IMG/VR virus record: IMGVR_UViG_2711768068_000023 | Location: 1 to 22,311 of that record | Length of the DNA: 22,311 nt | DNA from: a virus | Lineage: Duplodnaviria > Heunggongvirae > Uroviricota > Caudoviricetes | Strand: one strand, 5' to 3' | Shown here: in pieces, positions 13,778 to 14,794 of the stretch | Layout: every line of letters starts with the position of its first letter | Position numbering within the stretch: the first letter of the stretch is position 1 | Notes under the pieces: model-generated | Databases searched by the model: none | The model's input: only the letters and a program-made list of their open reading frames with translations | Told to the model about the DNA's origin: nothing | Position numbers and translations under genes: made by a program

Positions 13778-13812
13778 GCACCAAACTAAGAAAAGTTTGG
13801 TGTTTCCTCTTG
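13778..13812 (+). terminator. Hairpin plus T-rich tract downstream of cI (terminator candidate that also carries an ACTAAG operator half-site)
   Basis: 9-bp stem CACCAAACT/AGTTTGGTG (13779-13787 with 13794-13802), loop AAGAAA, then TTTCCTCTT. Confidence 0.45.
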
Positions 13813-13921
13813 CCTTAAAAACTAAGTTAAGTTAGATTTAATATCAAAGATAACGAACAGGCAGGACGCCCACAAAGTAGCCTCCTGGGGCAAATGAAGT
13901 CCAGGATGATTCGTTAGCAAC

Positions 13922-13945
13922 AAAAAAGCGCCCTATAGAACGCTT
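13922..13945 (-). terminator. Weak intrinsic terminator candidate downstream of the 173-aa moron
   Basis: 5-bp stem with 10-nt loop followed on the minus strand by T6 (plus A-run 13922-13927), about 40 bp after the gene stop. Confidence 0.3.
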
Positions 13946-13986
13946 CGATCTTTAACAATCTGGGTATCATCCAACCAATGCAAGAT

Positions 13987-14508
13987 TTAAGGAATCCAAG
14001 GCGAATTCAGATCTCGCCCCGACTCACGTAATGATCTTGGTCGTTCGTACATCGGATTTTTTTCCATAAGAAATTTATTTTCACAGTGAAGGCAACGGCT
14101 TGTAAGAAAATGAGAAGTTTTACCTACTGGAAGCGGATGAAGTATCGATTTTATATTTTTGGAATAACAAAGTGGGCACAGATGCACAGTTATTTCTTTT
14201 CCACTCACAATTTCATTTTTAGAGTAAACAAAAGCACCAGAGTCAAGCTGATCAAGGACATATCCTTCTACCTTGGCACAAAAATCTTCAAACTCTGCAA
14301 TTTTTGCTTTGAGATGCATCACCTCTTCATCACGAAGGCGGATCGCATCGCCAAGAGAGAAGCATTCTGCCTGAAGCGTGATTAGTTTGTTCTGGAGTTC
14401 AATGGTTGCAGCTTTAACTTCTGCATCCGTTTTCGCGTCATTAATAACCTTAGCAAGACCGGCAGTCTCCTTTATAGCAGCCATAGCCGCAGACAGTTCA
14501 GCTATCAC
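13987..14508 (-). CDS. Hypothetical moron protein (about 165-173 aa): N-terminal coiled coil, C-terminal Cys4 zinc-ribbon (CPLC...CLHC); candidate lysogen-expressed accessory gene
   Basis: Convergent with cI and opposite to the early-left operon. C-terminal half is distinctly AT-rich. The track start at 14508 is GTG; the first ATG is at 14484. Own putative terminator downstream. Confidence 0.55.
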   Translation of the reverse strand: MIAELSAAMAAIKETAGLAKVINDAKTDAEVKAATIELQNKLITLQAECFSLGDAIRLRDEEVMHLKAKIAEFEDFCAKVEGYVLDQLDSGAFVYSKNEIVSGKEITVHLCPLCYSKNIKSILHPLPVGKTSHFLTSRCLHCENKFLMEKNPMYERPRSLRESGRDLNSPWIP

Positions 14509-14794
14509 GTTGAATACTCAGCTAGTTGTTGGGGGTATCCAGATTAACCAAATCCTTGTTGTTGGGGAATAACCAGGTCCACCTCGCCTGATGTGGCTAA
14601 AAGCAGGCACATAACAGCTAAGTATTTTCAACCAGAGAGAATCCTTAGCGTTGTGGTGAATGCGGCTCAGCGCACGCGGGTTAAGGTTGAGGCTGACAGT
14701 CGACCTTCTGTGGATACCCACCCGTCTGGTGTACAACCTTCGCCAGGCACCGGGAGGCACCCGGCACCACAACTTTATGCTGTGTGTAGTCTTG

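Follow-up and report, generated by a model that had tools for sequence, protein, structure and literature searches.

A prophage gene convergent with cI probably encodes a divergent Rip1-family defence protein and lies downstream of a sieB-type promoter block

We describe a gene of 173 codons, here called ORF173, that is carried next to the repressor gene cI in a Caudoviricetes prophage sequence (IMG/VR record IMGVR_UViG_2711768068_000023, positions 1 to 22,311; "the window" below means this whole stretch of 22,311 nt). Sequence comparison and a structural model place its product, with high confidence, in the Rip1 (ring interacting pore 1) family, of which it is a divergent representative. An earlier interpretation made from the letters alone (the sequence-only reading) had proposed that the gene is a single-gene abortive-infection or superinfection-exclusion factor and that it may be undescribed. 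The homology to Rip1 supports the first part of this proposal; the second part is outdated, since the family was described in 2026 and is represented in the PDB by entry 9OOX. We estimate a probability of roughly 0.75 that ORF173 encodes a Rip1-family defence in which sensor and effector are united in one protein and of which the mechanism is most likely the same as that of Rip1. The gene and its two halves are as follows.

13987-14508, minus strand: ORF173, Rip1-family gene, assigned from phrog_1244, the phmmer match to PDB 9OOX, hhalign and Foldseek
14269-14508, minus strand: residues 1-80, two long helices in the AlphaFold2 model, the conserved half; matches the reported pore part of Rip1
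13990-14268, minus strand: residues 81-173, beta-rich with four invariant cysteines, the variable half; matches the reported ring-contact part of Rip1

The ORF173 product is related to Rip1

A phmmer search of the PDB sequences matched residues 5-151 of the ORF173 protein to positions 15-160 of a chain of 9OOX, named 'ring interacting pore 1 (Rip1)' and derived from phage HK446, with E=1.7e-9. According to its title, this entry is the cryo-electron microscopy (cryo-EM) structure of Escherichia phage HK446 Rip1 with the Enterobacteria phage T6 small terminase. When a profile of 55 homologues was aligned with HK446 Rip1 by hhalign, the match had a probability of 98.7% (E=2.3e-16 over 146 columns), and the only significant Foldseek matches in the PDB were 9oox_L and 9oox_M (E=4.5e-7 and 7.9e-7, probability 1.00, template modelling (TM) scores 0.53/0.68). 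The profile and structure searches that the sequence-only reading had called for thus ended in a fold-level match to Rip1. The DMS3-25 protein is related to an equal degree: BLASTP gave 30% identity with the ORF173 protein (E=3e-20), while the identity between DMS3-25 and HK446 Rip1 is 31% (E=1e-26). The distant relatives found by tblastn are those of HK446 and of the Pseudomonas Casadabanvirus phages DMS3, JBD30, D3112, MP42 and others.

The libraries of named families were less informative. The protein had no significant match in Pfam, NCBIfam or PADLOC-DB v2.0.0 (2023), the last of which is older than the description of Rip1; its best PADLOC match, to a type IV DinG model, was not significant (E=0.023), and the SieB profile PF14163 did not match at E<=0.1. 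In PHROGs it was assigned to phrog_1244 (E=2.7e-52), a family of 'unknown function'. An N-like antiterminator or another regulatory or structural phage protein, which the sequence-only reading had named as the kind of homologue that would speak for a different role, was looked for in Pfam, NCBIfam and PHROGs and was not found.

The AlphaFold2 model, computed with the 55 homologues, has a predicted local distance difference test score (pLDDT) of 90.1 and consists of helices at residues 2-24 and 28-79 followed by a beta-rich domain at 84-150. This division into long N-terminal helices and a compact C-terminal domain agrees with the solved Rip1 structure. Four cysteines of a putative zinc ribbon, C111, C114, C139 and C142 (CPLC...CLHC), are invariant across the 55 enterobacterial homologues and also in HK446 Rip1, DMS3-25 and three other homologues. 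The coiled coil and C4 zinc ribbon that had been read from the sequence were therefore a fair description of the fold, given the AlphaFold2 helices and the invariant cysteines.

The family has many members of much the same size. When 1.84 billion cluster representatives were searched with a profile, 2497 proteins matched at E<=1e-3 (786 of them at E<=1e-10), counted at the 50% cluster level, and nearly all of these are about 145-180 aa long and match from end to end. ORF173 is therefore no chance open reading frame (ORF). The named homologues in a search of 5.8 billion proteins were all 'hypothetical' or 'uncharacterised', with one UniRef entry called 'Coiled-coil protein from phage origin'. 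The Rip1 family has been known since 2026, and the ORF173 clade adds a divergent enterobacterial branch to it.

Rip1 (Patel et al., Nature 2026) is described as a single-protein abortive defence whose pore is triggered by oligomeric rings of the small terminase or the portal (PMC13434031). By the same account, Rip1 by itself is without toxicity, infected cells become rounded, and escape mutations lie in the portal in phages of Pseudomonas and in small terminase in those of E. coli (PMC13434031). In the cryo-EM structure, 12 Rip1 monomers encircle an 11-mer small-terminase ring; the N-terminal part is made of amphipathic helices that form the pore, the C-terminal half touches the ring, and the complex of Rip1 with the ring leads to dye release from liposomes (PMC13434031). 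Relatives are reported to be common across proteobacteria, chiefly in prophages (PMC13434031). A meeting report and a later paper agree with this outline.

The enterobacterial homologues are on average 77% identical to the ORF173 protein over residues 1-80 and 51% identical over residues 81-152, with the maxima of variability at residues 125-138, between the two cysteine pairs, and in the C-terminal tail. Conserved helices beside a variable C-terminal domain form the pattern that would be expected of a conserved effector joined to a diversifying sensor, and this matches the split reported for Rip1.

ORF173 is a single gene with borders of its own

ORF173 occupies 13987-14508 on the minus strand (coordinates including the stop codon) and starts with GTG. 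The identical coding sequence is annotated by the Prokaryotic Genome Annotation Pipeline (PGAP) as WP_000559914.1, 'hypothetical protein', in an E. coli chromosome with 99.9% identity across 13700-14700, where it is flanked by a 'LexA family protein' and by a frameshifted ORF followed by yfdP, yfdQ and yfdR. The gene is opposed to cI on one side and to yfdP/yfdQ/yfdR on the other, all of which are on the plus strand, and the plus-strand genes to its right in the window include yfdQ (DUF2303) and an HD phosphohydrolase gene. The standalone minus-strand gene of the sequence-only reading, its orientation against both neighbours and its own apparent terminator are all borne out by these annotations and by the hairpin listed below.

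13130-13756, plus strand: cI-type prophage repressor with HTH_3 and Peptidase_S24 domains (phrog_4, transcriptional repressor), convergent with ORF173
12831-13031, minus strand: cro, beyond cI
12242-12907, minus strand: CII-like gene, beyond cI
13779-13811, plus strand: probable cI terminator read from the sequence, hairpin CACCAAACT/AGTTTGGTG followed by TTTCCTCTT; missed by the consensus scan
13946-13925, minus strand: intrinsic-terminator-like site of ORF173, a 9-bp stem followed by TTTTGTTG, 41 nt past the stop codon

The C-terminal half had also been called AT-rich. Its G+C content is 0.375, compared with 0.452 for the N-terminal half, 0.414 for the whole gene, 0.424 for cI and 0.482 for the window, and it stands at the 6th percentile among windows of the same size; the bias is therefore real but modest. 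For the stretch 13700-14700, which spans ORF173 and its flanks, 373 of the 5426 complete E. coli genomes contain a match to at least 80% of the length; among the matches listed, the best 20 have 97.7-99.9% identity.

ORF173 occupies a site of cargo exchange next to diverse repressors

Phage PhiR49_1 carries a 58%-identical homologue in the same place beside a different cI, and in phage vB_EcoM-689R2 the homologue is convergent with that phage's own repressor. The HK446 Rip1 gene is antisense between N and cIII. In a Pseudomonas phage, DMS3-25 separates the terminase genes and is read from the minus strand, a slot that agrees with the reported location of the P. aeruginosa prophage Rip1. A scan with one genome per species gave 20 homologue loci, including loci in Citrobacter, Kosakonia, Edwardsiella, Enterobacter, Buttiauxella, Erwinia, Symbiopectobacterium and Serratia symbiotica. 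At nine of the ten species loci tested, the nearest convergent ORF encodes an HTH_3 repressor (five with an S24 peptidase domain), and these repressors range in their similarity to the window cI from undetectable to 84% identity. The conservation of neighbourhood that the sequence-only reading had asked about is found beside convergent helix-turn-helix repressors, some without detectable similarity to the window cI, and this position fits its suggestion of a repressor-adjacent hotspot.

The borders of the exchanged piece can be read from phage vB_EcoS-569R4, in which cI and the flanks are the same (94.5-97.4% identity) but the cargo gene is another. The segment exchanged is exactly 13964-14524, that is, ORF173 with about 20 nt on each side. 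Because near-identical phages carry other cargo here, the site is a true cargo-exchange hotspot and ORF173 is dispensable for the phage; and because the swapped cassette is the ORF alone, ORF173 has no conserved partner gene. As is the case for Rip1, ORF173 is a single gene with its own predicted promoter, resident in a prophage and oriented against the lytic operon.

The gene that takes the place of ORF173 in vB_EcoS-569R4 (minus strand, 4182-4616 of locus L001) belongs to a family of 144-148 aa that is also found at 11 viral-contig loci (for example, L050 and L077). The family has no Pfam or PADLOC match. It fills exactly the ORF173 slot, with the same promoter block upstream, and we regard it as a strong candidate for a defence that is as yet uncharacterised. 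Further cargo families recur as well, among them one of 76 aa that is rich in cysteine, a membrane protein of 106 aa and one of 81 aa.

ORF173 probably lies antisense within the early-left transcription unit

The sequence-only reading had located the gene between the cI terminator and the early-left leader. Taken as a place upstream of the early-left promoter (PL), this location did not hold, as a PL-like promoter and an operator lie between cI and the 3' end of ORF173.

13810-13838, plus strand: candidate PL, TTGCCT (13810-13815), a spacer of 17 nt and TAGATT (13833-13838), aimed into the antisense strand of ORF173

An operator-like 20-mer occurs in two copies between cro and cI (13039-13058 and 13088-13107) and in a third, OL-type copy at 13816-13835, which directly follows the cI terminator hairpin and overlaps the candidate PL. 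Homology to the heteroimmune phage PhiR49_1 starts at 13852; the immunity-specific block therefore ends at 13851. At the same spot, PhiR49_1 (4150-4195 of locus L002) has a near-consensus promoter, TTGACA-N17-TAATGT, with operator repeats of its own, facing the antisense strand of its Rip1-like gene. Because an operator copy and a PL-like promoter lie between cI and the 3' end of ORF173, the gene would be antisense inside the early-left transcription unit. From the predicted position of PL we infer that ORF173 lies about 150 nt downstream of it, embedded in the same manner as HK446 Rip1 and P22 sieB.

A sieB-type promoter block precedes ORF173 and many other cargo genes

The region 14509-14615 (minus strand), which comprises the roughly 100 nt ahead of the start codon, is homologous to the region upstream of P22 sieB. 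The P22 GenBank record (NC_002371) has the sieB promoter and RNA start annotated inside this block, and the corresponding elements of ORF173 were predicted from the alignment.

14571-14543, minus strand: predicted promoter of ORF173, -35 TATTCC (14571-14566), a spacer of 17 nt and -10 GTTAAT (14548-14543), aligned to the annotated P22 sieB promoter
14509-14536, minus strand: predicted 5' untranslated region (UTR) of 28 nt, with the RNA start at about 14536-14534, aligned to the P22 sieB RNA start (NC_002371)
14554-14577, strand unassigned: inverted repeat CCTGGTT...AACAAGG, surrounding the first CCCCAACAAC unit and overlapping the -35 element
14579-14608, plus strand: conserved 30-nt pseudoknot-forming core, CCACC-TC-GCCTG-AT-GTGG-CTAAAAG-CAGGC, upstream of the -35 element

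Many members of the block have a perfect TATAAT at the -10 position. The stems of the inverted repeat at 14554-14577 vary among subfamilies and the motif in its loop is kept. The block precedes the Rip1-like genes of unrelated phages as well as the unrelated 144-aa cargo of vB_EcoS-569R4. It stands ahead of the Rip1-like gene at 17 of the 20 species loci, and one more locus has a degenerate copy. In the Rac prophage of E. coli K-12, a diverged copy lies upstream of sieB.

A pattern scan of viral contigs gave 121 matches, 109 of them with the full core, and here the block precedes at least 28 unrelated cargo families, of which one is SieB and one is Rip1-like. The SieB-type cargo matches the Pfam family SieB (PF14163, E=3.3e-13). 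Among the other cargo, the nine largest families were without a significant Pfam match, and the seven of these that were scanned against PADLOC had no match. In complete E. coli genomes, the block was matched in 2990 of 5426, with up to five copies per genome; of 30 block matches listed, 29 were without an annotated feature and one overlapped a hypothetical protein. A terminator common to all cassettes was considered as a second shared element and rejected: the terminator is shared only by the Rip1-type cassettes and one other family, and a terminator-like site of any kind was present in 9 of 28 cargo families.

The core of the block reads best as a pseudoknot on the strand opposite the cargo

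On the cargo strand (14608-14579) the core reads GCCTG-CTTTTAG-CCAC-AT-CAGGC-GA-GGTGG. Variation in it was followed in two sets of sequences collected blind to the core, for which the downstream repeat unit and the Rip1-like protein, respectively, served as anchors. The stem GCCUG/CAGGC is replaced by GCCCGG/CCGGGC (the Rac type) and by GCCGGG/CCCGGC, and the stem CCAC/GUGG by UCACG/CGUGA and CCUC/GAGG; all of these changes are compensatory, and the loops vary in length and sequence while both stems persist. The non-Watson-Crick pairs in the core comprise about six G.U pairs when the strand opposite the cargo is read, versus none or one the other way, a count made on a small sample of related sequences with two mis-parsed ones set aside. 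As far as the sequences tell, the core reads best on the opposite strand, as a well-proportioned pseudoknot of the H type in which loop 1 is short and loop 3 is rich in A.

Other approaches to the structure gave less. Rfam has no family for the core, and a literature text search for the core sequence returned nothing relevant. Minimum-free-energy z-scores of the leaders were about zero on either strand and thus gave no thermodynamic signal; the antisense strand was the more stable in 42 of 52 leaders, which are related to one another. RNAalifold on a MAFFT alignment of the short leaders gave only an invariant 5-bp stem and no covariation, and it misses the variable hairpin because MAFFT misaligns that hairpin.

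One possible role for such a structure is that of a riboswitch or thermometer in the sense-strand 5' UTR that hides the ribosome-binding site. Three reasons led us to reject it for the long class of leaders, which includes that of the window: in P22, the RNA of sieB is annotated to start downstream of both the core and the first hairpin; the supposed spacer is the -10 box, with a perfect TATAAT in many members; and the non-Watson-Crick pairs of the core are G.U only on the opposite strand. The short class has one hairpin, the 3' arm of which abuts the ribosome-binding site.

In P22, the 105-nt antisense RNA sas pairs with sieB mRNA and switches its translation, according to reviews. In P22, 105 nt is also the span between the ATG of sieB and the distal end of the core, and from this coincidence we put forward the hypothesis that sas may span exactly this block. 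A consensus scan of the P22 antisense strand gave no promoter for a sas-like RNA. A broader proposal, which is tentative and which we regard as somewhat doubtful, is that the block is a portable control module for prophage defence cargo, made up of a sieB-type promoter together with a covarying H-type pseudoknot and a hairpin that read best in the PL direction. The module would provide expression in the lysogen, and a structured antisense RNA would counter this expression when the phage itself grows lytically, in generalization of P22 sas.

How the ORF173 protein might act, and the alternatives

If the ORF173 protein acts as Rip1 is reported to act, the sequence of events would be as follows. 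In the lysogen, cI would silence PL, and ORF173 would be transcribed from its own sieB-type promoter, the protein alone being harmless. Once the late genes of an invading phage are expressed and an oligomeric ring of small terminase or portal is in place, the variable C-terminal Cys4 domain would bind around this ring, the conserved N-terminal helices would thereby assemble into a pore that breaches the inner membrane, and the cell would die before the phage progeny are completed. On induction of the resident prophage, transcription from PL would run antisense over ORF173 and its leader and, by collision and antisense RNA, may reduce ORF173 expression during the phage's own lytic growth, which would amount to self-protection. 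The defence function itself is supported by way of homology.

Several points weigh against this account. Identity to the characterised Rip1 proteins is only 23-30%, and the trigger or even the mode of action could therefore differ in this clade. The Rip1 mechanism is cited here from the review PMC13434031, a meeting report, a one-line mention and a PDB title. The predicted ORF173 promoter is weak by consensus, with 2 of 6 positions in the -35 and 4 of 6 in the -10 element, and the consensus promoter scan did not detect it. Finally, the hydrophobic moment of the first 80 residues showed no excess over shuffled sequences for the ORF173 protein, HK446 Rip1 or DMS3-25, a result that says nothing either way because the solved HK446 Rip1 is equally unflagged; the most hydrophobic 18-residue stretch starts at residue 5, 11 and 39 in the three proteins, respectively.

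The alternative to be taken most seriously, and one that we still consider improbable, is that ORF173 encodes a Rip1 homologue that acts otherwise: by sensing some other oligomeric structure, or by blocking assembly or packaging through sequestration without a pore, with exclusion of the phage but no cell death, in the manner of Tab or TerI. The low identity to characterised members would fit such a shift, as would the C-terminal half, in which the family varies most. Assembly-blocking defences such as Tab do occupy the same genomic slots, and TerI hits the small terminase by a different route. What argues for the Rip1 mechanism instead is that the N-terminal helical half, the reported pore part, is the best conserved (77%) and can be aligned from end to end with HK446 Rip1.

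It is far less probable that the protein is a zinc-ribbon regulator or nucleic-acid binder serving the phage's own cycle, such as an anti-repressor, a translational regulator or a recombination accessory, rather than a defence. Cys4 zinc ribbons are frequent among nucleic-acid-binding proteins, and two weak similarities turned up, one with CdsZ, a zinc-ribbon regulator (E=0.11), and one with 8WTB, a protein of the McsA type (E=0.24). These matches are, however, far below threshold, whereas significant sequence and fold matches were to Rip1 alone; the free swap with unrelated cargo in near-identical phages implies that ORF173 is not needed for the phage cycle; and genes of the family face against the lytic operons in three unrelated phage types.

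That ORF173 is a silent or decaying passenger without current function seems equally remote: part of the prophage is decaying, because the near-identical genome has a neighbouring early-left ORF annotated as frameshifted and a yfdN with an internal stop, but ORF173 is intact with every family-invariant residue kept, its promoter block and terminator are intact, and at least 80% of 13700-14700 is matched in the 373 complete E. coli genomes.

Comparison with other prophage defences

HK446 Rip1 is the closest characterised system. It shares with the ORF173 protein homology over nearly the whole length, the two-part fold, the four cysteines and a similar size, and its gene is likewise antisense in the early-left operon near the immunity region, with the same sieB-type promoter block and pseudoknot core upstream. 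The two proteins differ in that they are only about 23-25% identical, in a roughly 10-residue N-terminal extension of HK446 Rip1 that is missing in the ORF173 protein, and in the longer, unconserved C-terminal tail (153-173) of the latter; moreover, HK446 Rip1 lies between N and cIII, whereas ORF173 directly follows PL and is convergent with cI. The Casadabanvirus homologues (DMS3-25, D3112 orf25 and that of JBD30) resemble ORF173 in their 30% identity, in the four cysteines and in being reverse-oriented morons in a lytic operon. They differ in host genus, Pseudomonas, and escape from Pseudomonas Rip1 is reported to occur in the portal rather than in the small terminase (PMC13434031).

The SieB proteins of P22, lambda and Rac share with ORF173 the antisense slot in the PL operon and the homologous promoter, repeat units and pseudoknot core upstream, and SieB and Rip1 are both abortive-type exclusion functions expressed from the prophage. 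The SieB protein, a membrane protein of about 180-200 aa, is however unrelated to that of ORF173, and an internal product like Esc is known for no Rip1-type cargo. Tab of JBD26 is also a minus-strand defence moron with its own promoter, in the inter-terminase slot of DMS3-25, and it too is aimed at late virion assembly; in contrast, it is an unrelated protein of 83 residues that blocks tail assembly via the tape measure protein, has an anti-Tab partner and makes no pore. Lambda RexAB and BTP1 BstA are likewise prophage-expressed abortive-infection functions beside the repressor. Unlike ORF173, rexAB and bstA share the promoter of cI and are transcribed together with it rather than convergently; the proteins are unrelated, and RexAB has two components, of which RexB acts as an ion channel.

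The current Pfam, NCBIfam and PADLOC miss the family to which ORF173 belongs, and many defence genes would come to light with a profile made from the present sequences. The variable C-terminal half would offer a natural series in which to follow the evolution of sensor specificity toward phage rings. The promoter block is an unannotated tag that marks SieB and Rip1, both abortive or exclusion functions known from experiment, together with at least 25 unknown cargo families; it is a cheap way to nominate new defence genes and may point to a general antisense self-immunity switch. If the proposal of a control module were true, these at least 25 unrelated and unannotated small proteins of enterobacterial prophages would be a catalogue of new anti-phage genes, with the Rip1 clade as one cargo having its own trigger specificity.

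Other features of the prophage

A structured RNA may also be encoded in the early-left leader.

14620-14842, plus strand: STnc100-like RNA within the early-left leader (Rfam RF02076, E=1.5e-7; 42.9 bits, where the gathering threshold is 47)

A similar STnc100-like signal is present in PhiR49_1. Because it is overlapped by this RNA, the frameshifted 'pseudogene' annotated by PGAP may be a non-coding RNA. A full-scoring STnc100 (175.6 bits) lies elsewhere in the window, at 5171-5379 on the minus strand; its neighbours are AgvB (5111-5170) and a set of three tRNA genes (5492-5740). Within the Rac prophage of E. coli K-12 MG1655 (3406-3671 of locus L148), the sieB block copy has the stem GCCCGG/CCGGGC, and just past it, on the opposite strand, is the annotated small RNA KilS, with a sub-threshold match to DicF (39.1 bits). 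This arrangement mirrors the window, which has an STnc100-like and DicF-like signal at the corresponding position.

On the far side of cI, Rfam identified a C4 antisense RNA (80.1 bits) and isrK (60.1 bits) next to each other at 11697-11885 on the minus strand, in or overlapping a 278-aa Ash-family ORF (11409-12245). Judged from these matches, the pair suggests an antisense-controlled antirepressor module of the P1/P7 or Gifsy type in addition to the cI/cro switch.

Toward the end of the prophage, a 408-aa protein with HD and HD_assoc domains (19490-20716, plus strand) matches the PADLOC dGTPase model with E=1e-104 and looks, from this match, like a second defence gene on the same prophage. 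The dGTPase-like gene is adjoined at the prophage end by a 407-aa ORF (21088-22311) that is probably, by its position only, the integrase. Downstream of the Q antiterminator gene (6243-7037) and the tRNA genes, a 643-aa protein (3027-4958, minus strand) contains DUF1737, a sialate O-acetylesterase (SASA) domain and DUF6645, and presumably resembles the NanS-p esterases of Stx-type lambdoid prophages.

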